A DNA stretch of 64,000 bases from Phycisphaerae bacterium. GTDB taxonomy: Bacteria > Planctomycetota > Phycisphaerae > FEN-1346. Made by a program: the position numbers and the translations under genes. The stretch is from NCBI GenBank assembly GCA_035529015.1, contig DATKXP010000079.1:5513-69512 (forward strand). Direction: 5' to 3'. Numbering within the stretch: position 1 is the stretch's first letter; each line of letters opens with the position of its first letter. The notes under the pieces were generated by a model that made no database searches, had not been told where the DNA came from, and saw only the letters and a program-made list of their open reading frames with translations. Shown piece by piece: positions 2,620 through 19,270 of this stretch.

Positions 2620-2841
2620 ATGGCCGATGACGGCCCAGAAATGGCGAAAACGCTGAACCCGGCAGCCCTGACAGTCGCCGATGCCGCCAGGATTCTCACG
2701 GCCGCCGGCGGCGGGGCCGTCACCGCGGAGATGATCCAGGCCGACTTGGACGCCGGCGCGCCCACGAACGCCGACGGGACCATCAACCTGGTGCACTACA
2801 CGGCGTGGCTCGCGAGGGAGGTGACCTCCGGTGAAGGTTGA
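2620..2841 (+). CDS. small DNA-binding protein in small-terminase position
   Basis: 73 aa directly upstream of and overlapping the large terminase; shares an L-x-PA-x-L ... L-x-x-Y-x-AWL motif with the TerL N-terminus. Confidence 0.45.
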   Translation: MADDGPEMAKTLNPAALTVADAARILTAAGGGAVTAEMIQADLDAGAPTNADGTINLVHYTAWLAREVTSGEG

Positions 2842-5095
2842 CCCGCGCAACTTGCGGCCCGCCGAACTCGTGCGGCTACTGAACTCGACGCCTCTGGGCG
2901 AGGTCCTGCGGCCACACATCCTGTACCGTCACCGTGACCGGGCCGGGTTTCACATCGGCGACGGCCGGCACGTGGACCTTATCCGTTACGCGGCCTGGCT
3001 GATCCAGGAGCGGCGGCGACCCAAGCCGGCCCGGTCGGAACCCGACTACGAGGCGATGAAGGAGTCGGCCCGGGCCCGAAACGCCCGTCTCTCGGCCATC
3101 GGCCGGGACATCGGCGAGATCCCCGAGGTCCAGCACCCGCGCCGAAAGCGCAAGGCCCAGAAAGGCTTTGAGTACTTCTGCAAGGTCTACTTCCCGCAAG
3201 TCTTCCACCTGCCCTGGTCCAAGGACCACCTGAAGGCCATGGCCAGGATCGAGGACGGTGTCATGCGGGGCGGTCTGTTCGCCTTCGCCATGCCGCGCGG
3301 AAGCGGCAAGACGAGCCTCTGTGAGACGGCCTGTATCTGGGCCATGCTCATCGGCGCCCGCGAGTTCGTGTGCCTCATCGGAAGCGACGAGGGCCACGCC
3401 GAGGACATGCTCGACTCGATCAAGACCGAACTCGACGGCAACGACCGGCTTCTGGAGGACTTCCCGGAGGCGGTCTACCCCATCCGTCGCCTCGACGGGA
3501 TCGCTAACCGATGCAGCGGGCAACTGTACCGCGGCGAGCGGACCCATATGGTCTGGACGGCCCGCGAGATCGTCCTGCCGACCATCGACGGGAGCACCGC
3601 TTCCGGAGCCATCATCCGTGTGGCAGGTCTGACGGGCCGTATCCGCGGCATGAAGTTCAAACGGCCCGGTGGACGGAGCGTCCGGCCGTCGCTCGTCGTC
3701 CTGGACGATCCGCAGACCGACGAGTCGGCGCGAAGCGCCTCGCAGTGCGCCACGCGCGAGAGCGTCCTGGCCGGGGCGGTCCTCGGCCTGGCCGGACCCA
3801 AGAAGAAGATCGCCGGCGTCATGCCCTGCACGGTCATTCGGCCCGGCGACATGGCCGATTCGATCCTCGACCGCGAGAAACACCCCCAGTGGCAGGGGGA
3901 ACGGACGAAGATGGTCTACACCTTTCCTACGAACGAGAAGCTCTGGGCCGAGTACGCCCAGATCCGGGCGGAGAGCTTTCAGAACGGCGGCGACGGGTCA
4001 GAGGCCACCGAGTTCTACCGCAAGCACCGTGGCGAGATGGACGCGGGCGCCGTGGTGGCCTGGGCCGAACGGTACAACGAGGACGAACTGTCGGCCTTGC
4101 AGCATGCGATGAACCTCCGGTTGCAGGACGAAGCGGCGTTCTTCGCCGAGTACCAGAACGAGCCGTTACCGGAGGACGAAGGTGATGAGGAGCAACTGAC
4201 GGCCGACGAGGTCGCCGCCAAGATGAACGGCTACAAGAGGTGTCTCGTGCCCGTGGGCTGTGACCACCTGACGGCGTTCATCGACGTGCAGCAGAAGGTC
4301 CTCTTCTACGTCGTGGCGGCCTGGGGAAGCGACTTTGCCGGATACGTCATCGATTACGGCGCGTACCCGGACCAGAAACGGGCGTACTTCACGCTCCGGG
4401 ATGCCCAGCGGACGCTCGCCAGGGCGAGCCCGGGCGCGGGGCTGGAAGGGTCCATCTATGCGGGCCTCGAAGCCTTGACCGGTGACCTCCTCGGCCGCGA
4501 GTGGCGGCGGGACGATGGCACGGTCATGCGGGTCGAGCGGTGCCTGGTGGACGCCAACTGGGGCCAGTCCACCGACGTCGTGTACCAGTTCTGCCGGCAA
4601 TCGGCCCACGCGGCGGTGCTGTTGCCGAGCCACGGTCGATACGTCGGGGCATCGAGCGTTCCCTTCGCCGAGTACAAGCGCAAGCCGGGCGAGCGCGTCG
4701 GCCATCATTGGCGGATTCCGAACACGCGCGGTCAACGGGCGATCCGTCACGTCCTCGTGGACACGAACTACTGGAAGTCGTTCGTCCACGCGCGGCTGCA
4801 GGCGGCGATGGGCGACAAGGGATGCCTCTCGCTCTTCGGCCGGGATTCGAAGCGCCACCGTCTCTTCGCCGAGCACATCACGGCCGAGTACTGCGTCCGG
4901 ACCGAGGCCAGGAACCGGACGGTGGACGAGTGGAAACTCCGGGCTGGCCACCCGGAGAATCACTGGCTCGACTGCCTGGTGGGCTGTGCGGTGGCCGCGT
5001 CGGTCCAGGGCGCGGTGCTGTTCGGGACGGACGCTGGCCGGCGGGAGAAGCGTAAGCGGATCAGGCTCTCTGAGCTTCAAAGGAGCACGCGGTGA
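2831..5095 (+). CDS. terL: phage terminase large subunit
   Basis: 754 aa; Walker A AMPRGSGKT, Walker B LVVLDDPQTDE; C-terminal nuclease-sized domain; followed in the phage backbone by a portal gene. Confidence 0.85.
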   Translation: MKVDPRNLRPAELVRLLNSTPLGEVLRPHILYRHRDRAGFHIGDGRHVDLIRYAAWLIQERRRPKPARSEPDYEAMKESARARNARLSAIGRDIGEIPEVQHPRRKRKAQKGFEYFCKVYFPQVFHLPWSKDHLKAMARIEDGVMRGGLFAFAMPRGSGKTSLCETACIWAMLIGAREFVCLIGSDEGHAEDMLDSIKTELDGNDRLLEDFPEAVYPIRRLDGIANRCSGQLYRGERTHMVWTAREIVLPTIDGSTASGAIIRVAGLTGRIRGMKFKRPGGRSVRPSLVVLDDPQTDESARSASQCATRESVLAGAVLGLAGPKKKIAGVMPCTVIRPGDMADSILDREKHPQWQGERTKMVYTFPTNEKLWAEYAQIRAESFQNGGDGSEATEFYRKHRGEMDAGAVVAWAERYNEDELSALQHAMNLRLQDEAAFFAEYQNEPLPEDEGDEEQLTADEVAAKMNGYKRCLVPVGCDHLTAFIDVQQKVLFYVVAAWGSDFAGYVIDYGAYPDQKRAYFTLRDAQRTLARASPGAGLEGSIYAGLEALTGDLLGREWRRDDGTVMRVERCLVDANWGQSTDVVYQFCRQSAHAAVLLPSHGRYVGASSVPFAEYKRKPGERVGHHWRIPNTRGQRAIRHVLVDTNYWKSFVHARLQAAMGDKGCLSLFGRDSKRHRLFAEHITAEYCVRTEARNRTVDEWKLRAGHPENHWLDCLVGCAVAASVQGAVLFGTDAGRREKRKRIRLSELQRSTR

Positions 5096-5265
5096 GTGAG
5101 AACGCGACAGAGGAGAAACGCGGGCTGGAATGCCGTCACTGCGGCTGCCGGCACTTCCGCGTCATCTACACCCGCCCCGCCTGGGGCGGGCGGATTATGC
5201 GGCGGCGGGAATGTCGGAACTGCGGAAAGAGAATGACGACGTGGGAGCGGCCCCTCGGCGGATGA
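5092..5265 (+). CDS. small zinc-ribbon protein (57 aa, not in ORF track)
   Basis: Read by eye: GTG 5092 overlaps the TerL stop (GTGA); VSENATEEKRGLECRHCGCRHFRVIYTRPAWGGRIMRRRECRNCGKRMTTWERPLGG with CxxC...CxxC. Confidence 0.45.
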   Translation: MSENATEEKRGLECRHCGCRHFRVIYTRPAWGGRIMRRRECRNCGKRMTTWERPLGG

Positions 5266-5524
5266 TGGGGCCGACTCCGCACGGATTGGGAACTCGGCGG
5301 TTGCCCTATGACGCCAGCCACGGCGGGTCTTATGCCGGTCAGCATGACACTCCGCCCCAAGATGGTGGCAAGGCCAAGGTCTACTTCTCGGCGCCCTCCA
5401 GGCAGATCGCACGTTGGGCGCAGGGCATTCGAGATCTCGCCTGCAACGATGACGCCCCAGCAGTGGGCGCGCTCCGAGTACCGCGTGTGACGGAATCCGC
5501 AGTCCCGTTGAGCAGAAAAAGCAG

Positions 5525-5553
5525 TTGAAACACGCTTAGAACTGTGGCATAAG
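5525..5553 (+). promoter_or_regulatory. candidate sigma70-like promoter for the cargo operon
   Basis: TTGAAA, 17 nt spacer, CATAAG, about 90 nt upstream of the gatA-like ATG; weak -10. Confidence 0.25.
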
Positions 5554-5644
5554 GGATGTCGTGCCCGGTCTGTGCGGAAGTTGGGGCGCCAGTGTGGTGT
5601 TGTGTCTGCGCTCGCGCCGGCTGGGGCCAGAGGATAGGCTCAAC

Positions 5645-7093
5645 ATGGATCTGTCAAAGAGCACAGCTCACCAGCTGAAGTCGCTCATCGCTGGCGGCGA
5701 GACAACTTGTCGTGAGGTCATGCTTTCAGTACTGGAGGAGATCGAGCGCCGAGAGTCTGACGTGCAGGCTTTCATTACCGTTCGGGATCGCGGCGAGTTA
5801 CTTGCGGAAGCGGATGAGGTCGACCGCCGACGCAGCCGCGGCGACGCGATCGGCGCGTTGGCGGGGCTGCCGATCGCCGTTAAAGACAACATCTGCACTC
5901 AAGGAATGGCAACCACATGCGCATCCCGAATGCTGGCAGACTGGGTTCCCCCGTATGACGCAACCGTGGTTCAGCGAATCCAAGCAGCCGATGGCATCAT
6001 ACTGGGGAAGACGAACCTCGACGAGTTTGCCATGGGTTCGAGCACAGAGAACTCGGCAATGAAGACCACGCGGAACCCCCACAACCACGACTACGTGCCC
6101 GGGGGGACAAGTGGGGGGTCGGCGGCCGCTGTGGCCTCTAACGAGTGCATCTTGGCCATTGGCTCAGACACCGGAGGATCCATCAGACAGCCTGCGTCGT
6201 TCTGCGGAGTCGTCGGCATGAAGCCGACCTATGGCAGAGTGTCGAGATATGGCCTCATCGCCTATGCCTCGTCGCTCGACCAGATTGGGCCGATTGCCAA
6301 GGACGTGAGAGATGCCGCCCTCCTTCTCGAGGTGATTGCAGGACACGATCCCATGGACTCGACGAGCCTGGCGGCCGGCGTTCCGGGATACGTCGCGGGC
6401 CTTGGGAGCCAACGAGGGTTCCGGTTTGGCGTTCCCGATGAGTACTTCGGGCCGGGCGTGGACAGACAGGTCCGCAGGGCCGTAGAGGGAGCCATTGACG
6501 CCCTCAAGGAAGACGGCCAGGAAGTGGTACAGATCAGCCTTCCCCACACTGAGTACTCGGTAGCCGCGTACTACATCGCCGCGTGTTCCGAGGCTAGTTC
6601 AAATCTCGCGCGTTATGACGGATGCCAATACGGCTTCCGCGCTGAGGGCATCGGCGATATGATAGGCATGGTCAGCGAGACCAGAGCAGAGGGCTTCGGC
6701 CCGGAGGTCAAACGCCGAATCATGCTCGGAACCTACGCCTTGAGCGCTGGCTACTATGATGCATACTACCTGAAGGCCGCCAGGGTGCGTAGGCTCATCG
6801 CTCAGGACTTCGAGTCCGCATTCAAGACCTGCGACGTCATACTGCACCCTGTTGCCCCAACAGCAGCCTTCAGGATCGGCGAGAAGATCGATGATCCCCT
6901 GGCCATGTACTTGGGTGATATCTTCAGCGTGACGGCCAACCTAGCTGGCCTTCCGGCCACAAGTGTCCCTTGCGGACGCACGAGCGAAGGGCTGCCCGTC
7001 GGCATACAGTTGACAGGAAAAGCCCTCGACGAGGGGACGCTGCTCGCTGCGGCTTATCATCTTGAATGCCTGCTCCGGAGTTCTGCCGCATGA
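5645..7093 (+). CDS. gatA: Glu/Asp-tRNA amidotransferase subunit A paralog (amidase signature family)
   Basis: Near-canonical GatA blocks: AVKDNICTQGMATTCASRML, GKTNLDEFAMGSSTENS, GGTSGGSAAAVA, GSDTGGSIRQPASFCGVVGMKPTYGRVSRYGL; start taken at ATG 5645 (MDLSKS). Confidence 0.85.
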   Translation: MDLSKSTAHQLKSLIAGGETTCREVMLSVLEEIERRESDVQAFITVRDRGELLAEADEVDRRRSRGDAIGALAGLPIAVKDNICTQGMATTCASRMLADWVPPYDATVVQRIQAADGIILGKTNLDEFAMGSSTENSAMKTTRNPHNHDYVPGGTSGGSAAAVASNECILAIGSDTGGSIRQPASFCGVVGMKPTYGRVSRYGLIAYASSLDQIGPIAKDVRDAALLLEVIAGHDPMDSTSLAAGVPGYVAGLGSQRGFRFGVPDEYFGPGVDRQVRRAVEGAIDALKEDGQEVVQISLPHTEYSVAAYYIAACSEASSNLARYDGCQYGFRAEGIGDMIGMVSETRAEGFGPEVKRRIMLGTYALSAGYYDAYYLKAARVRRLIAQDFESAFKTCDVILHPVAPTAAFRIGEKIDDPLAMYLGDIFSVTANLAGLPATSVPCGRTSEGLPVGIQLTGKALDEGTLLAAAYHLECLLRSSAA

Positions 7094-7626
7094 GCGGGGA
7101 TGACATGGACACGATTCCCTGGGAAACAGACGCCACCTACCCCGACTGCCTGGGGAACCATATTCGGCTTTTGCGACGCTCCTTGCCCGACGTGGAGAGT
7201 GCGAAGAGCAAAGAACTGCTCCCCTTCTTCCACGAGACGTCATCGTTCGTACTGGAGTCCTTCGTCCCTGAACGCGACAAGGAGAGGGTACGGGGGAAAC
7301 TCCTAAGGTTAGACCTCGAGCCAAGTGTCGCTCGTGCGTGCATCCTCTCACATAGGCACACAGACGAGTATCTATGGCTGATCCATGCAGTTGCGCGAAC
7401 GCTGCTTACTGTCTGGAGGCTGAACGACCTGCTTGAAGCCGTACAAGTCGAGCTAGAAGGCCGCAGATCGGTTCTCCACATGCAAATGGGGGGGGAGCAT
7501 CTGCTCTGCCTGTTCGATAACCAAGGCCGAGGCGTGGGATGGTGTGAAGAACTGGCAACGGAGGCCCGTGCGTTCAGTGAGAACACCGTATGGCCCCGCG
7601 GCAACGGCCGCGAGCGTGCTCGTTAG
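7090..7626 (+). CDS. hypothetical protein coupled to the gatA paralog
   Basis: ATG 7090 overlaps the gatA stop (ATGA); 178 aa; no motif recognised; does not resemble GatB or GatC. Confidence 0.5.
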   Translation: MSGDDMDTIPWETDATYPDCLGNHIRLLRRSLPDVESAKSKELLPFFHETSSFVLESFVPERDKERVRGKLLRLDLEPSVARACILSHRHTDEYLWLIHAVARTLLTVWRLNDLLEAVQVELEGRRSVLHMQMGGEHLLCLFDNQGRGVGWCEELATEARAFSENTVWPRGNGRERAR

Positions 7627-7726
7627 GCCCAGCACGCGAGAATACAAGAGTGGGTGAGGGGTGCCTATTCGCCCCCAAGGCGACAGAACGGCACTGGGAC
7701 AACCCACGGGATCGGGACAGAGGGCA

Positions 7727-8263
7727 ATGTCAAGAAGCTTATTAGACTATGCAATTCTGCTTGGCTCTTACGTGGGCATTCCGGTAGGGGCCCTCGTGTT
7801 TGAGATCGGGCTAAAGGCACTGATGGCTTTTGCGGCGGATTGGTCAGACCGGACGAGAGGCGAGCGCGGGCGTACGGCGTTGCTCACGGGCGGCGATTCC
7901 CCTTCGGGTTACTCGTTCTGCGTGCTGGGACTTGCCACAGGCTTGCTCATAGCGCTGAACAGAGACCGATTGGCTGATTCCTCGACCTGTCTCCGGGACT
8001 GGCCTGTGCTTAGCCTGATTGCTTCCACGGTTCTCTCTTCACTGTCTCTGGGGGTGGCGAGCGTGCTGTGTGTTCGCATTCGATCATCCGAAATGTATGA
8101 GAGAAAGGTTTTGCTAAGTAGGCTGGTGATTGCTCCGAAACCAGGCTGGGATCGCCTGAGAGGAAGGCTCGAGCGCGCGCGAGCGAGGAAGTTGCGAGCT
8201 GTTGTTGCCGCTCTTGGGGTCTTCTCGCTGTTTGTGGCTTCCGCGGTGTTCTTTGGCATCTAG
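7727..8263 (+). CDS. multi-pass membrane protein
   Basis: Four hydrophobic helices (e.g. YAILLGSYVGIPVGALVFEIGL, FCVLGLATGLLIAL, VVAALGVFSLFVASAVFF); start uncertain (7661 or 7727). Confidence 0.5.
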   Translation: MSRSLLDYAILLGSYVGIPVGALVFEIGLKALMAFAADWSDRTRGERGRTALLTGGDSPSGYSFCVLGLATGLLIALNRDRLADSSTCLRDWPVLSLIASTVLSSLSLGVASVLCVRIRSSEMYERKVLLSRLVIAPKPGWDRLRGRLERARARKLRAVVAALGVFSLFVASAVFFGI

Positions 8264-8275
8264 GGGGGGCCGACT

Positions 8276-8689
8276 GTGGAGTTGCTCTTGTTCCTATTGG
8301 CAGGCCTGATTGCCTCGTTTGCGGCGGGGCTCATCGCGGTCTACGTGGTTGAGGCTCGCGTTGCTCCCGCGTTCGCGCGGTGGCTCCTGCGCACGCCAAG
8401 CGGGAGACGGCTGCGGGTAGCCTATCTGCTCGGCTTGTTGCGCCGCTTCGGGAGGAAGCTGCGCGGGCTCCGAGGCAGAGAGACGCCTGAAAGGGCTGAC
8501 GGTCGTGCTCATACGGCGGGCGGCATGCGCACTATGATGATCATCGTCACATTGCGCCCCGCAACCGATTGCGGTAAGCGCTGTGGGGTGGTCGGCCAGC
8601 GATTCGCTTCGGCTGCCTTCCGTGAAGCAGGTTGGCGTTCGCGGGGAGACTGGGTGCTTGTCAAGCATGGGCGAGGGCCCGTATTATGA
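8276..8689 (+). CDS. possible small single-pass membrane protein
   Basis: N-terminal helix LLLFLLAGLIASFAAGLIAVYVV then Arg-rich low-complexity tail; the true stop may be effectively earlier; weak. Confidence 0.3.
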   Translation: MELLLFLLAGLIASFAAGLIAVYVVEARVAPAFARWLLRTPSGRRLRVAYLLGLLRRFGRKLRGLRGRETPERADGRAHTAGGMRTMMIIVTLRPATDCGKRCGVVGQRFASAAFREAGWRSRGDWVLVKHGRGPVL

Positions 8690-8792
8690 GGGAGCTCGGT
8701 TGCAGGCGCAGATCATCACTCCGCGTGAACGCGGGGCGCGAGGCTCCCGAGGGCCTGCACCGGAGTCTGTCAGTATCTAAAAGGGGTAACTC

Positions 8793-10469
8793 ATGAGAAC
8801 GGTAGCGTTTTACAGTTTTAAGGGAGGAACGGGCAAATCGCTCGCGGCTGCCAACATGGCCGTCTGCCTCTCGCGCCTCGGCAAGCACTGTGCGGTTGTC
8901 GATCTCGATTTTGACTGCCCGACCCTTCATCTGAAATTCGAGAATCTGTGCGACCATGCGCCAGGCGCAGGCGGGGTCGTGGACTTTGTCCGATCCCACA
9001 CCAAGGGAGACCCCTGGACAGGCTGGAACTCGGTGAAGTTGGTAAGCAGCCGGAAGGCGCAGAAGCCGCTGTCTGACTTCACCTACCCCGTGCCGCAGCG
9101 AGGCGCCGATCTTGGCACGATTCACCTTATCGCGGCCGGTGACTACATTCACCAAGAGGAATACTTGGCAAGTGTTGCCAGTCCTGTCTGGACTATGCTC
9201 TTCGCCAGTGACGTAGGGCTCGGGGTGGGGGCCTTCACCGCGAAGCAGGCCTCCCAGTGCGAGAGATTTCTGGAAAGCTTCAAGGAACAGGTGTCGGACC
9301 TCAGCCCTGAACCCGAGTATTTTCTCCTCGACCTCCGCAGCGGTTTTGGGCCACTGAGTCGGACAACCATCAGGCTCTGGGCGGATGTCGTCGCCGTTTT
9401 CCTGGCAAGCAACGTTGAGAGCGTCAGCATTCTTAGCGGGATGCTGAGAGAGATGCAGGCTTGGTTTGACGGACCACTGACTTATGAAGCGGTTGTTCCG
9501 GTGCTGACCCGTACACCCATGACCCTCGAGACCGGGCGGGGAGTCGAGGTGAAGCAGACTATTCTTTCGATGCTTTCCTTGCAAGAGGACGAACTATACT
9601 ATCTGCATTCAGACCGCGACGTGGAGATGTTCGAGCATTTGCGGCTCGGGCTGTCGCATATGCCGCACAACTGCCTCCTTTCTCACGAGTATGTCCGGCT
9701 GTTCGCTCGACTCATGCTTCCCGCGAAGGAGTATGCAGGGCAGGATGTAACGGAACAAGTGGACGAAATGGCTAGGGCGATCAAATCAAGTATCAAGCTC
9801 GGCCAGTTTGTCCAGTGGAAGGACCGTGTGTTTAGGCTCGAGACGGAGCGCGGCGCTCTTATCAACCCTAGTGACAATGCACGCAACGTTTCATTCAAGG
9901 TGGAGACCATAAAGCTCCTACTGCACAGTTTGCGGGAGGAGTTGCTGACCCCGGCGGAGGCAGAACAGGCTCAGAGCGGGCACGATGGCACGGAGTCAGG
10001 GGCGGCGCCAACCGACGAGCCCACTGGGTTCGAGCAGGCCCTGCGCGTGGCAGGAGCGGAGTGTGGCAAGAGATTCGGCTCTGTGTTGATAAACGACGTC
10101 TGGCGTCTGAAAGGGCCAGCCAAGGAGAATCATGAGGACTGGGTGAGGAAATGGTCCGACTTCGACTCGGACGTTGGTTTCGGGCGGTTCGCACCCAAGT
10201 CAGGGAGTTTGCGCGTTGAGGGAGGACGACTGACCTCCTGCAAAATCGTTCTGCGAGAGAGTTTCCTCGCGCCTGCTCACGATTCCGAGTACGGGGACCA
10301 TGCTTTGTGCAGTTTCATCAGCGGATACATCGAAGGCGTTCTATCACACATACTCGGAGGCACCTATACGGTCATCCACGAAATTCTCGGATACGAGGAC
10401 GAGCAGTCGAGAAGCGAGAGCTGCGTGTTCAAGGTTGCGAAGAAACCAACAGGCACGACGGAGACGTAG
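8793..10469 (+). CDS. ParA/MinD-like P-loop ATPase fused to a C-terminal V4R-like ligand-binding domain
   Basis: N-terminus MRTVAFYSFKGGTGKSLAAANMAVCLSRLGKHCAVVDLDFD (deviant Walker A); C-terminus HALCSFISGYIEGVLSHILGG...ESCVFKV resembles 4-vinyl-reductase (V4R) domains. Confidence 0.65.
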   Translation: MRTVAFYSFKGGTGKSLAAANMAVCLSRLGKHCAVVDLDFDCPTLHLKFENLCDHAPGAGGVVDFVRSHTKGDPWTGWNSVKLVSSRKAQKPLSDFTYPVPQRGADLGTIHLIAAGDYIHQEEYLASVASPVWTMLFASDVGLGVGAFTAKQASQCERFLESFKEQVSDLSPEPEYFLLDLRSGFGPLSRTTIRLWADVVAVFLASNVESVSILSGMLREMQAWFDGPLTYEAVVPVLTRTPMTLETGRGVEVKQTILSMLSLQEDELYYLHSDRDVEMFEHLRLGLSHMPHNCLLSHEYVRLFARLMLPAKEYAGQDVTEQVDEMARAIKSSIKLGQFVQWKDRVFRLETERGALINPSDNARNVSFKVETIKLLLHSLREELLTPAEAEQAQSGHDGTESGAAPTDEPTGFEQALRVAGAECGKRFGSVLINDVWRLKGPAKENHEDWVRKWSDFDSDVGFGRFAPKSGSLRVEGGRLTSCKIVLRESFLAPAHDSEYGDHALCSFISGYIEGVLSHILGGTYTVIHEILGYEDEQSRSESCVFKVAKKPTGTTET

Positions 10470-10514
10470 CCTCGCGCTTGTGCATGGGCCGTACGTCCGA
10501 TGGAGGGATAGGCT

Positions 10515-11588
10515 GTGGCGAGCAAGTCGCGGGTCTGCCTGATATATACAGGCGGAACGATCGGGATGCAGAGGCTGTCGGACGGCACGCTCACCCCCCC
10601 TGACGACCCCAGAGATTTCCTTCGCGTCGCGCCCGAACTGCCCAAGATCACGGAATTCGACTTCGTACCTCTGATGAACAAGGACAGCACGAATGTGCAC
10701 CCCGGGGATTGGACCGAGATGGCGAAGGCCGTCTATGAGCGGCGCCTGGCCGGGTACGATGGCTTTGTCATCGCGCACGGCACGGACACGATGCATTTCT
10801 CGGCGTCGGCCCTGGCGTTCGCCCTCGGCCCGAACCTCGACTTCCCCGTCGTCTTCACGGGGGCCCAGACGATCCCCGAGGTCAGCCACGGGGACGCCCG
10901 GGTCAACCTCCTGCGGGCCTGCAAGGTCGCCACGACGGACCTCGCGGAGGTGGTGATCTCCTTCGGCGACTACATCTTCCGCGGCTGCCGTGCCCAGAAG
11001 AAGGACGAGCGACGGTTCGACGCGTTCGAGTCGCCCGCCTTCTTCCCCCTCGGTTATATCACGGAGGAGATCGTCATCCAGCCCCTGGCGAAGCGCCGCC
11101 ATCGCCAGGACAACATCGAGTTGAGGGCGGACTTCGTGCAGGGCGTGCTCCAGGTCTCGCTGATCCCCGGCTTGGAACCGGAGCTTCTCGTGCCGTCCCT
11201 GGAATCGCCTTTATGCAAGGGCGTCATGCTCCAGTCCTTTGGGGCGGGGAACGTCCCCCACGAAAAACCGTACGCCTTCACAGAGTTTGTCCGTCAGGCC
11301 AGAGCCTTGAACAAGCCGGTAACCATCGCGAGTCAGTTCCCGGCTAATGCCACGCTCCACACGGCATACGAGCCAGGCCGCGCAGCCGTGCAGGCGGGGG
11401 CCATCCCCACGGGGAATATGACCAGTTCCTGCGCTGCTGCCAAGTTCCGGTGGGTGTTGGCTCAGGTAGAGCGTGAGATCCGCGAGGGCGCTGTTAGCGA
11501 ATCCCAAAGACTTGATCGGGTTGCCAAGATGATGCAGACCGTGTACGTAGGAGAAATGGACGTCCCGACTGAACGGATCCGACCGTAA
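10515..11588 (+). CDS. type I L-asparaginase / GatD-like amidohydrolase
   Basis: VCLIYTGGTIGM catalytic Thr motif, AHGTDTM second Thr motif, FTGAQ; 357 aa. Confidence 0.8.
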   Translation: MASKSRVCLIYTGGTIGMQRLSDGTLTPPDDPRDFLRVAPELPKITEFDFVPLMNKDSTNVHPGDWTEMAKAVYERRLAGYDGFVIAHGTDTMHFSASALAFALGPNLDFPVVFTGAQTIPEVSHGDARVNLLRACKVATTDLAEVVISFGDYIFRGCRAQKKDERRFDAFESPAFFPLGYITEEIVIQPLAKRRHRQDNIELRADFVQGVLQVSLIPGLEPELLVPSLESPLCKGVMLQSFGAGNVPHEKPYAFTEFVRQARALNKPVTIASQFPANATLHTAYEPGRAAVQAGAIPTGNMTSSCAAAKFRWVLAQVEREIREGAVSESQRLDRVAKMMQTVYVGEMDVPTERIRP

Positions 11589-11607
11589 TCTCAAAGGAGA
11601 GGCGGCA

Positions 11608-13119
11608 ATGGGAAATCTCAAGCCAGAGAACGCCGTGGCTAGAGTCTATATCCTGTACACCGGCGGCACTATCGGGATGGTACCTGAGGACCCGGACAAC
11701 CCAGCCAGCCCGCTCGTTCCGGCGAATGAGGACGAACTCAAGATGTACGTGCCGGGCTTGGGGGAGAAGGAGGGCATTCACTGGGAAATCGGGCGACTGG
11801 TGGACGAGAAGGGCGACGACGTTCCGCCCCTCGATTCGTCCGACGTTAACTCGGAGCATTGGATTTACATGGCAACGTCCATCGAGAAAGTCTACGACGA
11901 GTTTGACGGCTTCGTCATTCTCCACGGCACTGACACCATGGCGTACACGGCTTCAGGCCTTTCCTTCCTCCTAGCCAACCTGGCAAAACCGGTTGTCATT
12001 ACCGGTTCACAGCTGCCGATCTGCCAGACGCGGACCGACGCCGTTCAGAACTTCGTGAATGCCCTTTACATCGCCGGCTACAAAGCCACAGGCTTCCCTC
12101 TCGTGCCGGAAGTCACGATCTGTTTCGGCGACGTCCTGCTTCGGGGGAACCGCACGCGCAAGGTGAGCACCGCCTCATGGCAGGGCTTCGACACGCCCAA
12201 CTTCCCAAAACTGGGTACCATCGGCGAGCACATCCGGATCAACACCAACCTTGTCCGTCCACCAGCCGACAATGAGAAGGCCCCGTTTTTCGCTCACAAG
12301 ACCCTAGTTTCCGACGTAATGGACATGGGCCTGTTCCCGGGCCTTAGGGCCACTCAATTGGAAAGGCTCCTCGGCATGGAGGGCCTGAAGGGCATTGTCC
12401 TCAGGACCTTCGGTGCGGGAAATGCACCGAGTTACGACGATTTCCTCGATGTGATCGGGAAGGCCATCAGGGGCGAAGGTCAGGGGGGGAGACTTATCCT
12501 CAACGTCACGCAGTGCGTCGAGGGCATGGTTGAGATGGGCCTCTATGCAGCCAGCAGCGGCCTGCTTGAGCGTGGAGTCATCAGCGGCTTGGACATGACG
12601 CCCGAGGCAGCGTTGGCGAAGCTGATGTGGATACTTGCCACGGAGTCGGATCCTGAAGAGATCCAGAAGCAGCTCCAGATAAACCAACGCGGGGAACAGA
12701 GCCAAAACCTGTTTGACGTTCGGTATGGCGGGGCCGGCAAGAAGTCCGAACCGCAGGCAATCGTCAAGGTCTCCGCCCGGCCTTCGGGCCAGTTTGACAA
12801 GACCGCTCTCCACCGCGCCGTCCTGCGCATTTCGGGCGTGGGTTTCGCAGACACGGCAGAGGGCGAAGATGTAGGGCTGCGCGTGTTCATCAACCTGCCC
12901 GGAGCAACTGCCGACACGCCCACAGCCGACCCGCACTTCGCGGCGGCTTTCGAGGAGAAGTACAAGGGGCCGAAGGGCACGAGGTTTCTGCGAGAGGTGA
13001 CAGCTGCCGTCAACAGGGTGGTCGAGTCCGGACGGCCGATCAACATCACACTTGTGCCGATGGGAGGAAAGAAGATCTGGTACGATGGCCTGTACCTGGC
13101 GCTATTCTGCAAGGCGTGA
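11608..13119 (+). CDS. asparaginase/GatD-like amidohydrolase with ~140 aa unknown C-terminal extension
   Basis: ILYTGGTIGM, LHGTDTMAYT, ITGSQLP motifs; 503 aa; C-terminal domain unrecognised. Confidence 0.75.
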   Translation: MGNLKPENAVARVYILYTGGTIGMVPEDPDNPASPLVPANEDELKMYVPGLGEKEGIHWEIGRLVDEKGDDVPPLDSSDVNSEHWIYMATSIEKVYDEFDGFVILHGTDTMAYTASGLSFLLANLAKPVVITGSQLPICQTRTDAVQNFVNALYIAGYKATGFPLVPEVTICFGDVLLRGNRTRKVSTASWQGFDTPNFPKLGTIGEHIRINTNLVRPPADNEKAPFFAHKTLVSDVMDMGLFPGLRATQLERLLGMEGLKGIVLRTFGAGNAPSYDDFLDVIGKAIRGEGQGGRLILNVTQCVEGMVEMGLYAASSGLLERGVISGLDMTPEAALAKLMWILATESDPEEIQKQLQINQRGEQSQNLFDVRYGGAGKKSEPQAIVKVSARPSGQFDKTALHRAVLRISGVGFADTAEGEDVGLRVFINLPGATADTPTADPHFAAAFEEKYKGPKGTRFLREVTAAVNRVVESGRPINITLVPMGGKKIWYDGLYLALFCKA

Positions 13120-13156
13120 ACCCGGCCCTGGCCCTCGGCTCAATAAGGCTTCTTCG

Positions 13157-13181
13157 GCGGCAGTTTCTGGCCGCGTTTCTT
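13157..13181 (+). terminator. weak hairpin plus T-rich tract after the second asparaginase gene
   Basis: GCGGC (13157-13161) pairs with GCCGC (13170-13174), 8-nt loop, then GTTTCTT; only a 5 bp stem. Confidence 0.25.
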
Positions 13182-13799
13182 GACAGATTTCCCTACACCT
13201 CGATCGGCCTTGGCCCGACAGTCCAGAGGCATGGCGGTCCCGGAAACGGGGCCCAGTCCGGGATCCAGGGAGCGTATACGCAAGATGGGGGAGAGAATGA
13301 CGTGCGAAGCGAGGGGTTCGTCACTGCCTGTTGGCCTCCGTGAGGAGGGACCCCATGCCGGGCCGCCCATTTGCGGTGCCAGCGTCTAGATGCGGAAGAA
13401 TCTGTGTCGAGTTGCAGTTTCCCGTCCCATTTCGCACTTCTCGTGTCGGTACAGGGCAGATGATGCAACCACTTTCGCCAACGTGTGATGTGGCGCGGCT
13501 TGAGGCGGAACTCAGCCTCGTGCCGCACGTGGACCGGGAGGAGGCCGTGCAGGAGGTGTGGCTCGCCCACCTGTCCGGGCGAAGACCCTATAAGCAGGTT
13601 TGCCATCCGCCCCCGTCTGGCTGGGCCAATCAGCAATCCGGGCCGCCCGTCGCTCTTTGGCCCAAAGCCGATGCCATAAAGCCCTAATTCCTTGGCGCCC
13701 ACTTGACAGGCTGTTACAATTCAACAGCAATCCCTGGTCCACCTGCGTTTGTGCAAAGGCGGGGATCGGCGACGCGCCGAAAGAGTGGAGGATGGCGGC

Positions 13800-14537
13800 A
13801 TGTACGGAGCGAGAATCGATGTTCCTGTAAGGGAGTTCGCGCACATCTTTTTGCGATGTCCTGATGTGGCCTTGAGAGACATTGAGGATATTGTGCTCAC
13901 AATCCGTCGCTTAGACCACGCCGTTGAGGCTGGTGATTGGGCAGCGACGCCTTGCTTGTGGAGACGACTCCGCTTTCTGACGGCACCTCTTGAGGAGAGC
14001 TGGCGCTCGGTCAGCGCGGCGGAAGTGGAGGAGTTGCAGATCTACGAACGGCATGAGAAGGACCTTCGGCAAGGCAAAGGTGTCATAGAGGGGCGCCTTA
14101 GTCGCATTCTTTACTTAAAGTCCGCCGACATTAACATCTATCGTCGGAGCTTGGCCTGCCGTGCAGGCCAGAAGCTTTGCCCTGACGTCTACAAAGCGCT
14201 CCGCGCGACGGATACGTTCCGGGAACTGTGTGATGATGTTGCAGACGTTGAGGAAGACTTGGTCAGGCCGAACTTCAACTTCCTTGTTCTCGCGCAGCGA
14301 TTGAGCGTGGATCCGGTAAGCGTGGTATGCGCAGAGTTCGACGCCTTGCTCGGCGTAGCTCTGGCTACACTGCGAAGACTGTGCGCTGGTGGGGCTCTGG
14401 ATGCTGAGTCTTGTGCCGTGCTGGAGGCGGCGATGGCTGATGAGGAAGAAAGGTTCAGGGCATTGATCCCTGAGAAGCTCGGCTGGCTGGCCCTTGCCGG
14501 TGGCGGGAGGACGGTGGCCTCGGTGGGGGCAGCGTAA
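13800..14537 (+). CDS. hypothetical all-helical protein
   Basis: SD GGAGGA 7 nt before ATG 13800; acidic LCDDVADVEEDL segment; no firm family assignment. Confidence 0.5.
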   Translation: MYGARIDVPVREFAHIFLRCPDVALRDIEDIVLTIRRLDHAVEAGDWAATPCLWRRLRFLTAPLEESWRSVSAAEVEELQIYERHEKDLRQGKGVIEGRLSRILYLKSADINIYRRSLACRAGQKLCPDVYKALRATDTFRELCDDVADVEEDLVRPNFNFLVLAQRLSVDPVSVVCAEFDALLGVALATLRRLCAGGALDAESCAVLEAAMADEEERFRALIPEKLGWLALAGGGRTVASVGAA

Positions 14538-14541
14538 CAGT

Positions 14542-15450
14542 ATGGACCGGCAGCGTTTGCTTTCGAGAAGGGCTGTGCTGTTTCCGACAGATACGTCTTT
14601 CGAAGGACGTAGCCGACTTGCAGTTGCTGTCAGGTCGCGCGGTTGCGCACATGCGCGCTCGTTTGGACCGTGCATTTACTGTGCTTGCCTAAACGATCCT
14701 CTTTGTTGCCAGAGTCCGGACGTTGCGATAAGGGACTTCGCCGCGACGATTCAGGAGTACGCTGGAGAGCAGATAGATGTAGTAAGTCTGCTGTGTCCAG
14801 GTTCCTTTCTCGACGAGCAGGACCTGCCGCGGCACACCGCCGAAGAGATGGTGCGGAGCGCGATCGACTCTTTGCGTGTCGAGACGGTCACGGTGGAAAG
14901 CCGACCGACGTTTGTGTCGGACGCGTCTGTGGAGTGGCTCCGGGGGGCCGCCGCTGGTGCACAGGTCGAGATCGCGATCGGTTTCGATACTGTCTCGGAT
15001 TCGGTCCGTAACGGCGTTATCGGCAAGAAGATCTCAAGGTACGAGCTGCGTCGAGCAGTCCAGTGTGCGAAGAGGCGCGGCACTAGACCTGTGCCCTTCG
15101 TAGTTGCTCAACCGCCCGGCGTGACACGGGCTCAGGCAGTGGCCGAAGCCGTGAGCACCGTGATCTTCCTTCGGGACTTGGGGGTTACCGAGTGCTGGAT
15201 GGAGCCGGTTCTTGTGGTTGCAGGCAGTAGGCTACAGGAGCTCTGGGAGGCTGGGGAATACCGATTGCCGGAACCCAGTATTGTCGACGAGATCGAGGCA
15301 GCGTGCTCTGAGGTGATGGGGGTCCGTCGGGGTGGTGACATCGCGTCACCGAGGGTTGTTGCGCCGAGTGCCGTTGCAGAGAGGAGGACCCAACAGCATT
15401 GCCAGAGGACGGTGGCTGGTTGTTTCTGTGGTGTCAGCAAGAGCAAGTAG
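14542..15450 (+). CDS. putative radical SAM protein with non-canonical Cx8Cx2C spacing
   Basis: RGCAHARSFGPCIYCAC near the N-terminus; overall size and pattern recall the TIGR01210/RaSEA-type branch, from memory only. Confidence 0.5.
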   Translation: MDRQRLLSRRAVLFPTDTSFEGRSRLAVAVRSRGCAHARSFGPCIYCACLNDPLCCQSPDVAIRDFAATIQEYAGEQIDVVSLLCPGSFLDEQDLPRHTAEEMVRSAIDSLRVETVTVESRPTFVSDASVEWLRGAAAGAQVEIAIGFDTVSDSVRNGVIGKKISRYELRRAVQCAKRRGTRPVPFVVAQPPGVTRAQAVAEAVSTVIFLRDLGVTECWMEPVLVVAGSRLQELWEAGEYRLPEPSIVDEIEAACSEVMGVRRGGDIASPRVVAPSAVAERRTQQHCQRTVAGCFCGVSKSK

Positions 15451-15505
15451 TCTGAGCGCGGTGTTCTGAAGCTACAACTGAGTACGGGATCCGGAGCGTA
15501 CCGAC

Positions 15506-16798
15506 ATGCATATCTGCTTTGTCTCGCCTCGCCCCTCTTCGTCGGACGGCATCTTTGGCGTTGAGCCACTCCGTATACCTCCCTTGGGTCTCCTTATTCT
15601 TGCGTCCCTTACTCCGGACACGGTTAAGGTCGACGTATTCGATGAGCATCTGGAGGAGCTTCCAGATCTCAGCACTTATGACCTGGTAGGTATGACGTGT
15701 TCCACTGCTGCATCGACGAGGGCTTACGAGATTGCCGATCACTGCAAGAACCTTGGGGTTCGGGTAGCTCTCGGAGGATGCCATCCCTCCTTGCTTCCCG
15801 AAGAGGCACTTGGGCATGCGGACTTCGTCTTCGTGGGGCCGGCCGAGAGAACGTGGCCGCAGTTCATCTCAGAGTTCGCCGCAGATTCTGCTAGACGACT
15901 GTATAGCGACACAAAGCTTGGTAGGCTTTTGAATCTGCCCTTACCGGATTTCTCCAAGGTCGCAAGACTCGCGCCGCGATATGGCACTATGAATGTAGCG
16001 CTCTCAAGCCTGGGCTGCAGTCACCGGTGTGCTTTCTGTACCGTCTACGCCTCCTCTGGGATAGGCTTCAGGCCGAGACCGATTGAGGATGTTGTTCGAG
16101 ACCTTAAGCCCATGAGCGGGCAGTTTGTGTGGTTTGTTGATGACAACCTCTATTGCAATCGGGAGTATGCGCTAAGGCTCTTCCGGGCTATCGAGCCCCT
16201 CCAGCTCACATGGCTGAACCAAGCGAGTATTTCAATCGGCCATGATCTGGACACGCTTGTAGCCGCGAAAAGGAGCGGCTGCATCTCTCTGCTGATAGGA
16301 CTGGAGTCACTTTCGGCGCGGTCCCTGAGAGCAAGCCGCAAGACCTGCAATGTGCCGGACGAATACAGATCCTGTGTTGATGCCATACGGGGGGAGGGAA
16401 TAGGTGTTGAGGCGGCTTTCATATTTGGGTTTGACGAAGAGGACGAGGGTGTCTTCGAAACGACGCTAGGGTTCTGCTACGATGCCGACGTTGAGCTGGC
16501 ACACTTCTCTATACTCACTCCTTTTCCGGGAACGAGCTTCTACGCGCGATGCCTTCGCGAAGAAAGACTTCTCAAACAAGAGTGGCGCTACTTTGATGGG
16601 TTTCACGTGGTGTTCAAGCCTGCTCTCATGTCCGCGGAGAGGCTTTTGCGAGGCTTCCGTGAGGCGTACCAGGAGTTCTATCGGCCGGAGGCAATAGCCC
16701 GTCGCCGCCGCCGCGCGGTCCAGCCGGCGTGGTATTTCTCGGCCATAAACAGGGACTACGGTGTGCTAGGCAGGAGTGCGGATTCAGGTGGAGGGTGA
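15506..16798 (+). CDS. B12-binding-domain radical SAM protein
   Basis: N-terminal Rossmann-like MHICFVSP...LLILASL...YDLVGMTC then LGCSHRCAFC (CxxxCxxC); 430 aa. Confidence 0.75.
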   Translation: MHICFVSPRPSSSDGIFGVEPLRIPPLGLLILASLTPDTVKVDVFDEHLEELPDLSTYDLVGMTCSTAASTRAYEIADHCKNLGVRVALGGCHPSLLPEEALGHADFVFVGPAERTWPQFISEFAADSARRLYSDTKLGRLLNLPLPDFSKVARLAPRYGTMNVALSSLGCSHRCAFCTVYASSGIGFRPRPIEDVVRDLKPMSGQFVWFVDDNLYCNREYALRLFRAIEPLQLTWLNQASISIGHDLDTLVAAKRSGCISLLIGLESLSARSLRASRKTCNVPDEYRSCVDAIRGEGIGVEAAFIFGFDEEDEGVFETTLGFCYDADVELAHFSILTPFPGTSFYARCLREERLLKQEWRYFDGFHVVFKPALMSAERLLRGFREAYQEFYRPEAIARRRRRAVQPAWYFSAINRDYGVLGRSADSGGG

Positions 16799-16803
16799 TC
16801 GAC

Positions 16804-17496
16804 ATGTGTGAGGCGGCAGGTGCGGAAGCACAGCCACTCCAAGACTACCGCGAGGAAGTGGAGACTCATTTCTTGGCCTGCACGGCGTTCGTTTTCTTGG
16901 TGAGCGCCGGTCACGGTCTGTCCCAGGTAGTGACGGGGTGGTTTGCCGAGAGCCCCTGGCTCCTCGGCTATGCCGCGTGGGTCGCTGCGTCGTTCATACT
17001 CTTCGGCTGTCATTGTAAGAAGTCCCGAGGGCCACACGGGGAATGGCTAAAGGCTCAGCAGGAGAAGCCTTGGCTCGTCATCTTGGTCGACCTGTTCATG
17101 ACGGGTGCGTTTGTGTTCTTGGCGGGGGGATGCAGAAGCGGCATGATGTTCCTTTTCTGCTGGTGCTTTCTCTTCGATACTGTCCTGCTTCTCCCCGTCC
17201 ACGGTGATAAGCCTCGCACGGTGCTGGCGATGGTTCTGTACGGTAGCCTGGCGCTCTTGGTTCTTGTGGCAGCGACGGTTCCGTATGAGGTCTGGAGCTT
17301 ACATCCCATGAATGTTGGGATGACGCCAGCAGAAGCCAGATTGAAACTGGGCGACAATGCTTGGCTGGTATGGCTCCAGTACGCGCTGGTGCTGTTGCTC
17401 ATTGTCGGGCTGTGCTACGCTTGCCTAGGGCTTAGACGTATTGCCCGGAGGCACCTGGCTGTTGCTGGCTTGGGAGGTGGCGCAGCGCGGAAATAG
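16804..17496 (+). CDS. multi-pass membrane protein
   Basis: Five to six hydrophobic helices; Cys/Phe-rich (MMFLFCWCFLFDTVLLL); start taken at ATG 16804. Confidence 0.55.
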   Translation: MCEAAGAEAQPLQDYREEVETHFLACTAFVFLVSAGHGLSQVVTGWFAESPWLLGYAAWVAASFILFGCHCKKSRGPHGEWLKAQQEKPWLVILVDLFMTGAFVFLAGGCRSGMMFLFCWCFLFDTVLLLPVHGDKPRTVLAMVLYGSLALLVLVAATVPYEVWSLHPMNVGMTPAEARLKLGDNAWLVWLQYALVLLLIVGLCYACLGLRRIARRHLAVAGLGGGAARK

Positions 17497-17507
17497 GTGC
17501 GGATGCC

Positions 17508-18851: not shown

Positions 18852-19270
18852 CGACTGGAATCTGCTATCGTTTTCTGAGCGGTCGCTATTGGCGGCGATT
18901 CGGCTGCGGCCGGTGACCTGCTGAGTTCAGTGGGAACGCGTCACGCTAGACTTGGGACCTCAGTCGAGGGCATGCCGACGAGCAGGAAATCTCCCCAGGA
19001 GGTGGCGAGCGGTACGAGGAGCACGGGGCGAGACCCTCGTGTGGAAGGCCCGGCGGATGCGCGTTGCAGCAGGAAGTGCCACCGCAAGGGGCTGGATTGC
19101 ATCGCATAACGTACCATCAGGGCACGGACCGGGCGCCCCCCTGTGGGAAGCTCATATCTGGTCGCCCGTTCCCTTAGCTGGAATGCCCCCAAGGTCCACA
19201 TCCGTAACCATTTCACCTCACCACCCGAAAGTCTCTTCCGACCGCCCTGTGCCAACCGTATCATAGGATA

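Follow-up and report, generated by a model that had tools for sequence, protein, structure and literature searches.

The locus described here raises the question of what a GatA-type amidase and two asparaginases do together on a prophage, away from GatB and GatC. The genes lie at positions 5645 to 13119 of a 64,000-nucleotide stretch of contig DATKXP010000079.1 from a Phycisphaerae bacterium; this whole stretch is referred to as the window, and its numbering is used throughout (Table 1). An earlier note, made from the sequence alone, had described the genes as an orphan triad of amide hydrolases that might channel ammonia to a substrate other than tRNA or scavenge nitrogen. The genes that it described are all present, while three genes between p178 and the asparaginases had gone unmentioned, namely two that encode small membrane proteins and one that encodes an ATPase. 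The triad is also not an orphan, as its arrangement recurs elsewhere. Our analysis indicates that this gene set, which coincides exactly with a predicted transcription unit (unit 1), joins two separable and recurrent modules, both apparently concerned with asparagine and glutamine amide chemistry. One is a pair formed by the amidase (GatA') and a small protein (p178); the other consists of a short and a long asparaginase (AsnS and AsnL) and a ParA-like ATPase. The conservation of the pair and of the asparaginase tandem bears out the earlier view that the genes form a functional unit rather than a chance cluster. We read unit 1, with slightly less than even confidence, as an NTPase-gated conflict system that would hydrolyze Asn and Gln and arrest growth by depleting amide donors.

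GatA' stands where the earlier note had placed a GatA-like open reading frame (ORF), and its assignment to that family is secure. The 482-aa product matches Pfam Amidase (E = 2.8e-154) and scores 612.8 bits against the curated equivalog model for gatA, TIGR00132 (cut-off, 481.1), over residues 13-475. Its best PDB matches, which align end to end, are GatA chains (3h0l, 2df4, and 4wj3; E ~1e-150). The amidase signature reads GGTSGG instead of GGSSGG, and T155 aligns to S154 of Staphylococcus aureus GatA. That is, the cis-Ser of the Ser-cisSer-Lys triad is a Thr in GatA', while the Lys and the Ser nucleophile are kept; we presume the catalytic roles of these residues to be those given with the published S. 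aureus structure. R358 and D425 are retained as well; in S. aureus GatA, these are the glutamine-binding residues, which hold the substrate by its alpha-amino and alpha-carboxyl groups.

In a neighbor-joining tree, GatA' groups with the amidases of three other loci (L256, L257, and L258), which are 66-71% identical to it. All other GatAs are at most 60% identical, and recent capture from a known host lineage was rejected because the closest ordinary GatAs reach only 51-60% identity. The Thr variant is present in three of the four clade members (the window, L257, and L258) and in none of 17 other full-length GatAs from the fetched loci or three GatAs from the PDB. Because it recurs in two other members of the clade, the variant is better regarded as a clade trait than as decay.

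As the earlier note had stated, GatA' is not encoded with GatC and GatB: tblastn with these proteins gave only noise-level matches across the whole 64-kb window. General domain scans and tblastn with GatB likewise found no GatB or GatE domain in the ORFs of the island that carries unit 1, where no separate search for GatE was made. Neither a gatC pseudogene upstream of GatA' nor a gatB remnant downstream was found in the window. With its foreign codon composition, its place on a prophage, its own clade, and the lack of gatC and gatB, the window GatA' is not the housekeeping gatA. It resembles the GatCAB subunit in exceeding the equivalog cut-off, in aligning end to end with solved GatAs, and in keeping the Lys and the Ser nucleophile; it differs in the Thr substitution typical of three-quarters of its clade, in the missing partners, in its location on mobile elements, and in having as its 3' neighbor an unrelated protein of a family of about 165 aa.

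This neighbor, p178, is a soluble protein whose start codon overlaps the GatA' stop codon, and the earlier claim that it is neither GatB nor GatC is upheld by an hhalign probability of <1% for both, with no match in the PDB. Profile comparison found no relation to GatC, GatB, V4R, or the C-terminal domain of polyphenol oxidases (PPO-C), and no match was found in Pfam, PHROG, NCBIfam, or PADLOC. A word-indexed search retrieved only p178 itself and suggested an orphan; this was overturned by an exhaustive HMMER search, which recovered 34 homologs of 155-187 aa (typically ~165 aa). The family alignment is marked by the conserved motifs PFF.EPSLFQ, LTVWRVN..LD.LQVN, and YMQTGG. In all three contexts that were looked up (four of four counting the window), the p178 homolog lies directly 3' of an amidase of the GatA' clade, at 66-70% identity to the window GatA for the three. 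The ATGA overlap is also present in L257, and the two genes abut in L258. These data mark p178 as a member of a new family and, as judged from gene order, as a dedicated partner of the GatA' clade. Since no p178-family protein occurs at any other locus of the asparaginase module, the GatA'-p178 pair and the asparaginase module are separable. A GatA clade that combines a catalytic-triad Thr with a new small subunit is informative about the reuse of amidotransferase subunits. The closest known parallel is AtzE-AtzG, the 1-carboxybiuret hydrolase, in which a GatA-like amidase acts with a small GatC-like partner. Both cases involve a GatA-derived amidase outside translation with a small dedicated partner encoded next door; GatA', however, scores 612.8 bits on the GatA model and only 287-302 on AtzE models, and p178 is larger than the AtzG-type partner and not similar to GatC.

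The neighbors of the pair in other loci bear on the suggestion that it channels ammonia to a substrate other than tRNA. On this account, GatA'-p178 would be a portable glutaminase supplying ammonia to a synthetase, a role that in the window would fall to the ParA-like ATPase or to a protein of the adjacent transcription unit (unit 2), with the asparaginases as additional ammonia donors after the manner of GatD in GatDE. In L257, the equivalent pair (GatA'-p166) directly follows a 377-aa catalytic core of a class II aminoacyl-tRNA synthetase (aaRS), which in the PDB is matched best by archaeal AsnRS and by archaeal asparagine synthetase A (AsnA). In L258, the pair comes after a GXGXG protein of the glutamate synthase type. 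The retained R358 and D425 and the translational coupling of p178 in the position of GatB/GatC point the same way, and the pair may plug into varied partners (the AsnA-like core, the GXGXG protein, or the asparaginases). Nonetheless, domain scans and tblastn found no aaRS-like, GatB/GatE-like, or other recognizable ammonia-accepting synthetase in the window; p178 lacks similarity to GatB and GatC and is separable from the asparaginases, both of which score below GatD cut-offs; and the ATPase has a MinD/ParA fold and a deviant Walker A motif instead of a CobQ/DTBS-type domain, with Lys replaced by Arg in most of its relatives. As an account of unit 1, channelled amidation is therefore improbable, and the lead for it is confined to the GatA'-p178 pair, for which the order of genes in L257 makes it possible.

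The L257 operon lies at 4565-10501 of an element with an integrase and ParA/ParB and encodes a radical SAM protein, a 431-aa protein, the AsnRS/AsnA-like core without an anticodon-binding domain, GatA', and the p178-family protein. These genes may constitute a glutamine-dependent asparagine synthetase in split form or a system for tRNA-independent transamidation.

The two tandem asparaginase-fold genes that complete the triad were recovered as described. AsnS (357 aa) and AsnL (503 aa) each contain both Pfam domains of the fold (PF00710, E = 1.5e-50 and 1.1e-52; PF17763, E = 1.9e-15 and 7e-27, respectively). The catalytic motifs TGGTIGM and HGTDT are intact in both, and the catalytic Lys is invariant in the AsnL family. 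Both proteins have the domains and motifs of type I asparaginases and are divergent, with AsnS (219.5 bits) and AsnL (249.7 bits) just under the type I cut-off of TIGR00519 (260.5). Their proposed likeness to GatD did not hold. AsnS and AsnL score 190.9 and 147.6 bits, respectively, against TIGR02153 (cut-off, 324) and 190.5 and 156.4 bits against NF003217 (cut-off, 310), and both lack the N-terminal domain of GatD (AsnS aligns from position 62 of the GatD profile and AsnL from about position 76-102). Thus, what is shared with archaeal GatDE is the asparaginase fold, the company of a transamidation enzyme, and a significant structural match of AsnL to GatD (1zq1) at rank 48; what differs is the sub-cut-off scores, the missing N-terminal domain, and the lack of GatE. 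In Foldseek searches with the AlphaFold2 (AF2) model of AsnL (predicted local distance difference test score [pLDDT], 90.3), the core was nearest to mammalian 60-kDa ASPG and Escherichia coli AnsA (E ~1e-32 to 1e-28; 35-38% identity), whose Thr/Thr-Asp/Lys catalytic motifs are kept in the window proteins.

AnsA is allosteric, and ASPG has a C-terminal regulatory extension of ankyrin repeats. AsnL differs from both in the nature of its extension and in being encoded alongside a second paralog and an ATPase. The extra C-terminal domain of about 140 aa that the earlier note had singled out forms an all-beta domain in the model (residues 366-502). Because Foldseek hits for the whole model are dominated by the asparaginase core, the domain was addressed by profile searches. 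A profile of the C-terminal family matches residues 404-476 of the polyphenol oxidase 7xio_A (E = 5.1e-6) through the motif VFVNLP.A..D.P..DP.F. The corresponding Pfam family, PF12143 (PPO1_KFDV), gives 18.9 bits against a gathering threshold of 26, and 7 of 20 family members match weakly. These results support a model of the domain as a beta-sandwich of the polyphenol oxidase (PPO) type. In PPOs, the C-terminal domain shields the phenoloxidase active site until activation; in AsnL, the domain is attached to an asparaginase rather than a copper oxidase.

The ATPase gene that had been overlooked tells against the earlier statement that no recognizable kinase subunit is present, although the protein, from its motifs and predicted model, has the look of a MinD/ParA switch rather than of a carboxylate kinase. 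The N-terminal half matches the Pfam families CbiA, ParA, and MipZ and carries a deviant Walker A motif, SFKGGTGKS, at residues 8-16. The AF2 model (pLDDT, 80.5) retrieves FlhG, MinD, ParA, and Soj as top Foldseek matches (E = 6e-9 to 1e-7), with CTP synthase at rank 39. The score against the KGGVGR ATPase model NF047398 (79.6 bits) is below the cut-off of 90. The window protein has KGGTGKS, whereas most module ATPases elsewhere have KGGxGR[TS], in which the Walker A Lys is replaced by Arg. The C-terminal domain of about 200 aa is V4R-like: 8 of 16 family members match V4R (PF02830; best E = 7.7e-4) and 5 of 16 match TRAPP, a family that shares the V4R fold, all of them below threshold (31 bits for V4R), and the domain has no sequence match in the PDB. 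A profile of this domain matches every partner ATPase and also proteins of 326-468 aa that lack the P-loop and adjoin AsnL. The same domain occurs in a 506-aa fusion with an N-terminal TIR_2 domain, encoded at 2890-4410 of L026 and 5 kb upstream of the AsnL gene.

The other two genes omitted from the earlier inventory encode p200 and p137, for which hydropathy predicts three membrane segments and an N-terminal membrane anchor, respectively. They are positional analogues of the four-segment p164 of L007, which lies between gatA and the ATPase gene, and of p136 in the same locus, which likewise has an N-terminal transmembrane segment. No sequence homologs of p200 were detected. The small proteins of different loci (p200/p164, p137/p136, and p245/p227/p241) show no detectable homology and are alike only in position and membrane topology.

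We then asked how widely the asparaginase module is distributed. Full-length homologs of AsnL, about 490 aa long and 50-72% identical to it, number more than 100. Nearly all are from metagenome-assembled genomes, and their hosts include Alphaproteobacteria, Acidobacteriota, Armatimonadota, Eremiobacterota, Actinomycetota, Chloroflexota, Verrucomicrobiota, Planctomycetota, and Campylobacterota, among others. All ORFs within 7 kb of AsnL were clustered across 62 distinct loci, and only three partners recurred: AsnS in about 20 loci, the ATPase or its C-terminal domain in 24, invariably on the AsnL strand, and GatA in 17. The most regular companion of the asparaginases is the ATPase. The AsnS homologs (44-71% identity) immediately precede the long paralog, so the tandem is conserved in about 20 of the 62 loci and in many phyla.

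The association with gatA is far stronger than chance would give. Against an expected 0.4-2% per locus, 17 of 62 corresponds to a binomial P of 1e-26 to 4e-15, and even if only 6 independent events in 20 lineages are assumed, P is 1e-10 to 2e-6. GatB is encoded within 7 kb in 5 of the 62 loci. At least five gene orders of gatA/gatCAB adjacency were found in several phyla. These include insertion of the module, on the same strand and tightly spaced, into a gatC-gatA-...-gatB operon at the gatA/gatB junction (L005/L014, L007/L030, and L036), convergent arrangements (L013/L046), placement directly after gatB (L054 and L056), and a lone gatA on either strand. All 10 adjacent GatAs that were tested exceed the TIGR00132 cut-off and group by taxon in a neighbor-joining tree, as housekeeping copies do. 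As a reverse control, the 80 ordinary gatA loci most similar to the window GatA were examined, and none contained an asparaginase or ATPase gene of the module, which argues that the module is not part of the core pathway. In two of the operons, the module is foreign DNA within a resident gat operon, as judged from G+C content at third codon positions (GC3; 0.45-0.59 versus 0.70 in L030 and 0.24-0.30 versus 0.55-0.58 in L036). In four other loci (L027, L076, L018, and L043), the adjacent GatA shares the composition of the module and seems to travel with it.

This linkage is one ground for a physiological explanation, in which amide nitrogen would be salvaged, or ammonia produced, under regulation and in connection with the tRNA-dependent synthesis of Asn and Gln. 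Hosts without AsnRS or GlnRS have no direct means of charging free Asn or Gln; there, the asparaginases would turn these into Asp and Glu for nondiscriminating synthetases, and GatCAB would reamidate them on tRNA. Ammonia would serve as a nitrogen source or in acid resistance, a V4R-ATPase metabolite sensor would guard against futile depletion, and the prophage copy would act as a lysogenic-conversion trait in concert with the SSF-family transporter encoded downstream. The number and variety of gat-linked arrangements, including those between gatA and gatB, and the housekeeping character of the adjacent GatAs fit this proposal, as does the nearness of AsnL to AnsA, an allosterically regulated enzyme. 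Metabolic neighbors are also present: a 2-hydroxyacid dehydrogenase in five loci, a pyridoxal phosphate-dependent decarboxylase, an ammonium transporter, and the SSF transporter of the window. AsnL is, moreover, found alone in plain housekeeping contexts (L254 and Ilyobacter polytropus). The gatCAB linkage, the metabolic neighbors, and the solitary copies keep a physiological role alive. We consider it the main rival explanation, possible but less likely than a conflict system, as the module is missing from all 80 ordinary gatA loci and is compositionally foreign inside gatCAB, and as the mobile and defense-island contexts and the domain variants described below would be unexpected for salvage. 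If it is correct, then many uncultured phyla have an unrecognized accessory layer of GatCAB in which Asn/Gln salvage is under ATPase control.

The solitary homolog in the cultured bacterium I. polytropus (L259; pILYOP01, 638623-640002) is 37% identical to AsnL over 96% coverage and is situated between dnaN and a gene for a cation:proton antiporter; the PLSDB table lists no feature for it. It offers an immediate experimental handle.

The variants of the module point in another direction. In five loci (L011, L023, L040, L057, and L064), AsnS is fused to an AAA_35 NTPase in a protein of 614-751 aa in which the nucleophile Thr is replaced (TGGT to TGGM), and a second, free-standing AAA_35 protein is encoded upstream in four of these (L011, L023, L057, and L064). 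The substitution suggests that the fused AsnS is a pseudo-enzyme that acts as a regulatory subunit for AsnL. As the dead paralog is fused to an NTPase, an AsnS/AsnL hetero-oligomer under NTPase control is suggested, and the two window proteins probably form such a hetero-oligomer. AAA_35 proteins, which are STAND NTPases, replace the ATPase in these variants; elsewhere its place is taken by ATPase-TPR fusions (L005/L014 and L047), and a NACHT-FGE protein is encoded inside the L012/L015 cluster. PNP_UDP_1 proteins occur in the operon in L034, L055, and L063, and other neighbors of the module include PIN, rve, DDE, AAA_16, and Pycsar-type TIR proteins.

These features recall anti-phage systems that deplete metabolites, among which are NAD depletion by TIR/SIR2 proteins, ATP degradation by PNP-type enzymes, and dNTP depletion, and also prophage defense hotspots such as those of the P2/P4 type. 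The module likewise combines a sensor NTPase with a proposed latent catabolic enzyme, has STAND, TPR, and TIR variants, is carried by prophages and integrative elements, and occurs in a phage hotspot and beside defense-like clusters. It differs in that the target would be the amides of Asn and Gln, for which no description was found in the literature, in that no known defense model matches, and in that the gatCAB linkage has no parallel. We favor the conflict system, a possibility that the earlier note had not raised, because its sensor NTPases are swappable (ParA-like, AAA_35, NACHT, and TPR fused) and because of the pseudo-enzyme subunit, the latency-type domain, the TIR and PNP companions, the horizontal mobility, and the prophage hotspot.

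From these features we infer enzyme substrates, gating, complex formation, and a biological role as follows. The ATPase or a V4R-like ligand-binding sensor would hold the asparaginase pair inactive; AsnL has, in its PPO-type extension, a domain of the sort by which phenoloxidases are kept latent. Upon a signal, the ATPase/V4R sensor would release or assemble the pair. The asparaginases, together with GatA' as a glutaminase, would then deamidate the free Asn and Gln of the cell to Asp and Glu with release of ammonia, so that its amide-nitrogen donor pool would collapse and growth would be arrested. The conserved motifs of AsnS and AsnL and the catalytic and glutamine-binding residues kept in GatA' suggest active enzymes. 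Such arrest through metabolite depletion could serve anti-phage defense or superinfection exclusion. On this reading, the repeated linkage to gatA and gatCAB would reflect a system that operates in, or relies on, hosts in which transamidation produces Asn-tRNA and Gln-tRNA. If the system is indeed defensive, then depletion of amino acid amides joins that of NAD, ATP, and dNTPs as an immune strategy, immunity is linked to the indirect tRNA-charging pathway, and there is a bacterial counterpart of asparaginase therapy.

Several observations weigh against a conflict system. Defense systems are not usually sited within or next to an operon essential for translation, as is the case here in several phyla; such placement better fits a physiological link to GatCAB. 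The metabolic neighbors and solitary AsnL copies noted above also count against defense. PNP_UDP_1 and TPR domains occur outside conflict systems too, and the PPO and V4R assignments consist of sub-threshold Pfam scores and one PDB profile match. GatA' could be a poor hydrolase, given the Thr in place of the cis-Ser. Among the models of PADLOC-DB 2.0, no operon protein found a match except the ATPase, whose P-loop (residues 2-46) resembles the candidate PDC-M28B (E = 8e-9); the other nine proteins matched nothing, and a known defense system was rejected on this ground. AsnL is absent from the viral contigs of IMG/VR. Our literature searches for asparaginase with defense, STAND, the gatCAB neighborhood, KGGVGR, or V4R returned nothing relevant, and the module is undescribed.

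A broader proposal can be made for the two modules together: that an undescribed form of amide-starvation immunity uses NTPase/V4R-gated asparaginases and a free-standing GatA-type glutaminase, and that GatA'-p178 is a new two-subunit glutaminase in which GatB and GatC have given way to an unrelated protein of about 165 aa. Immunity of this kind, tolerated by or coadapted with GatCAB hosts, would account for the repeated arrival of the system in or beside gatCAB or with a GatA of its own. We regard the combination as possible but less likely than not. Under either the defensive or the physiological explanation, the p178 family, the V4R-like domain of the ATPase, and the PPO-type domain of the asparaginase gain clear partners and testable roles.

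The genomic setting of unit 1 is that of prophage cargo. The window comes from a metagenome contig of 80.8 kb, and identical copies of the region are present in contigs from three other samples. It is a prophage because it encodes a gpA-type TerL, a lambda-family portal, a capsid, a tape-measure protein, and a tyrosine integrase at tRNA-Arg(CCT), with a host AcrB gene beyond. The phage linkage that the earlier note had remarked on is thereby confirmed, with TerL on one side of the cargo island and the portal and capsid genes on the other. The GC3 of island genes (0.61-0.82) is set apart from that of the TerL, gpW-like, portal, and capsid genes (0.83-0.90).

In 74 related viral contigs (TerL, 67-74% identical), TerL and portal are separated by about 590 bp in the median case and by at most 4.9 kb, versus 14.5 kb in the window. 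Fourteen of the 74 have inserts of 1.6-4.9 kb at this junction, and no island gene is present in any of the 74. The inserts of 13 relatives that were examined encode AbiEi/AbiEii (four members), REase-ARP, PD-(D/E)XK, HNH, MazG, and AAA_14/DUF4143 proteins. Judged from this cargo, the TerL-portal junction is an accessory or defense hotspot, at which the island is a variable and compositionally foreign insert. This cargo in the relatives also speaks against salvage. The module is not a common phage gene set: megablast found no match in GenBank phages, and IMG/VR, which lacks AsnL, yielded one distant GatA. GatA matches in "phage" records are about 50% identical and mostly in unannotated or metagenome-derived records; we take these to be host-like GatAs.

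Table 1. Coordinates of unit 1 and of other features of the window
Feature	Position	Strand	Remarks
TerL, gpA-type large terminase	2831-5095		
Cargo island, 14.5 kb	5096-19603		Between TerL and the 63-aa gpW-like/portal genes; composition foreign to the phage
GatA', GatA-family amidase, 482 aa	5645-7093	+	Pfam Amidase, E = 2.8e-154
p178, soluble 178-aa protein	7090-7626	+	ATG overlaps the TGA of GatA' (ATGA)
p200, three predicted membrane segments	7661-8263	+	Hydropathy; alternative start at 7727 gives 178 aa
p137, predicted N-terminal membrane anchor	8276-8689	+	Hydropathy
Putative switch ATPase, 558 aa	8793-10469	+	MinD/ParA P-loop half and C-terminal V4R/TRAPP-like domain of ~200 aa
AsnS, short type I asparaginase paralog, 357 aa	10515-11588	+	Pfam Asparaginase and Asparaginase_C
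AsnL, long type I asparaginase, 503 aa	11608-13119	+	Pfam N- and C-terminal domains; ~140 extra C-terminal residues
Terminator-like hairpin closing the GatA'-AsnL unit	13157-13174	+	Consensus scan only; weak
Unit 2: p110, p245, RaSEA-like radical SAM protein, B12-binding radical SAM protein, 5-TM (transmembrane) protein, SSF-family transporter	13355-18851	+	Pfam/NCBIfam
Strong terminator-like hairpin closing unit 2	19332-19365		Consensus scan
Lambda-family portal	19604-21064		
Protease-capsid fusion	21033-23153		
Tape-measure protein	28568-30913		
Tyrosine integrase	58709-60220		3' end overlaps the opposite-strand tRNA-Arg(CCT)
tRNA-Arg(CCT)	60133-60209		On the strand opposite to the integrase; the overlap marks the right-hand attachment end of the prophage
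Host AcrB-family pump	60543-63692		Beyond the right end of the prophage

The foreign composition of the island could also mean that its genes are passengers without a joint function: a chromosomal fragment acquired by illegitimate recombination, with a decaying GatA and a triad that is no more than inherited synteny. The absence of gatC and gatB and the substitution in the catalytic triad are compatible with such an origin, as is the fact that the genes of unit 2 are not conserved with the module. No meaningful repeats were found around the island, which accords with a passenger origin and led us to reject insertion by a repeat-flanked element. Passenger status is nevertheless very improbable. 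The ORFs are all intact and are identical in the four contigs compared, each from a different sample (AsnL is present in eight contigs in total). Furthermore, the Thr variant recurs in two other clade members, the coupled pairing with p178 is conserved, and the order and partners of the module are conserved across phyla.

Consensus scans predict a second transcription unit in the island, from about 13355/13800 to 18851. A gap of 235 bp follows the weak hairpin at the end of unit 1, and a promoter-like site is then found at 13692-13720. Unit 2 has a GC3 of 0.61-0.69, similar to that of unit 1, and is unusual phage cargo. Its RaSEA/MnmL-like radical SAM protein scores 100 bits against TIGR01210 (cut-off, 212). 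In other loci, no homologs of unit 2 genes adjoin the asparaginase module, except for one weak radical SAM match in L031; the radical SAM and transporter genes were accordingly rejected as conserved members of the module.

Beyond the two units, ORF 5130-5528 has no family match in Pfam or PHROG and looks noncoding. Gene calls are uncertain in positions 1-2800 owing to high-GC overlapping ORFs. Upstream of the terminase gene, ORF 375-1604 matches radical SAM weakly, at 23 bits and under the cut-off.

The window contains a second low-GC island at 35542-47526, which encodes a class V aminotransferase (cysteine desulfurase-like), a 301-aa DUF4007-like protein, a protein of 1118 aa, a PAPS reductase-like protein, a ResIII/DEAD helicase, HATPase_c_3, and a PLD-like protein. 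A colinear cluster (25-48% identity) lies immediately after ATPase-AsnS-AsnL on the integrase-bearing L010 (L009/L010, 14294-21533), so that a DUF4007/large ATPase/PAPS reductase/helicase cluster is common to the window and L010. This island resembles DNA phosphorothioation defense systems of the SspABCD-SspFGH type. Finally, near the integrase end, an 877-aa ATPase of the SMC/AAA_15/AAA_23 type is followed by large ORFs without a Pfam match (447 and 624 aa) in a region spanning 49743-52376 and 52597-58323, which is possibly another defense-like system.

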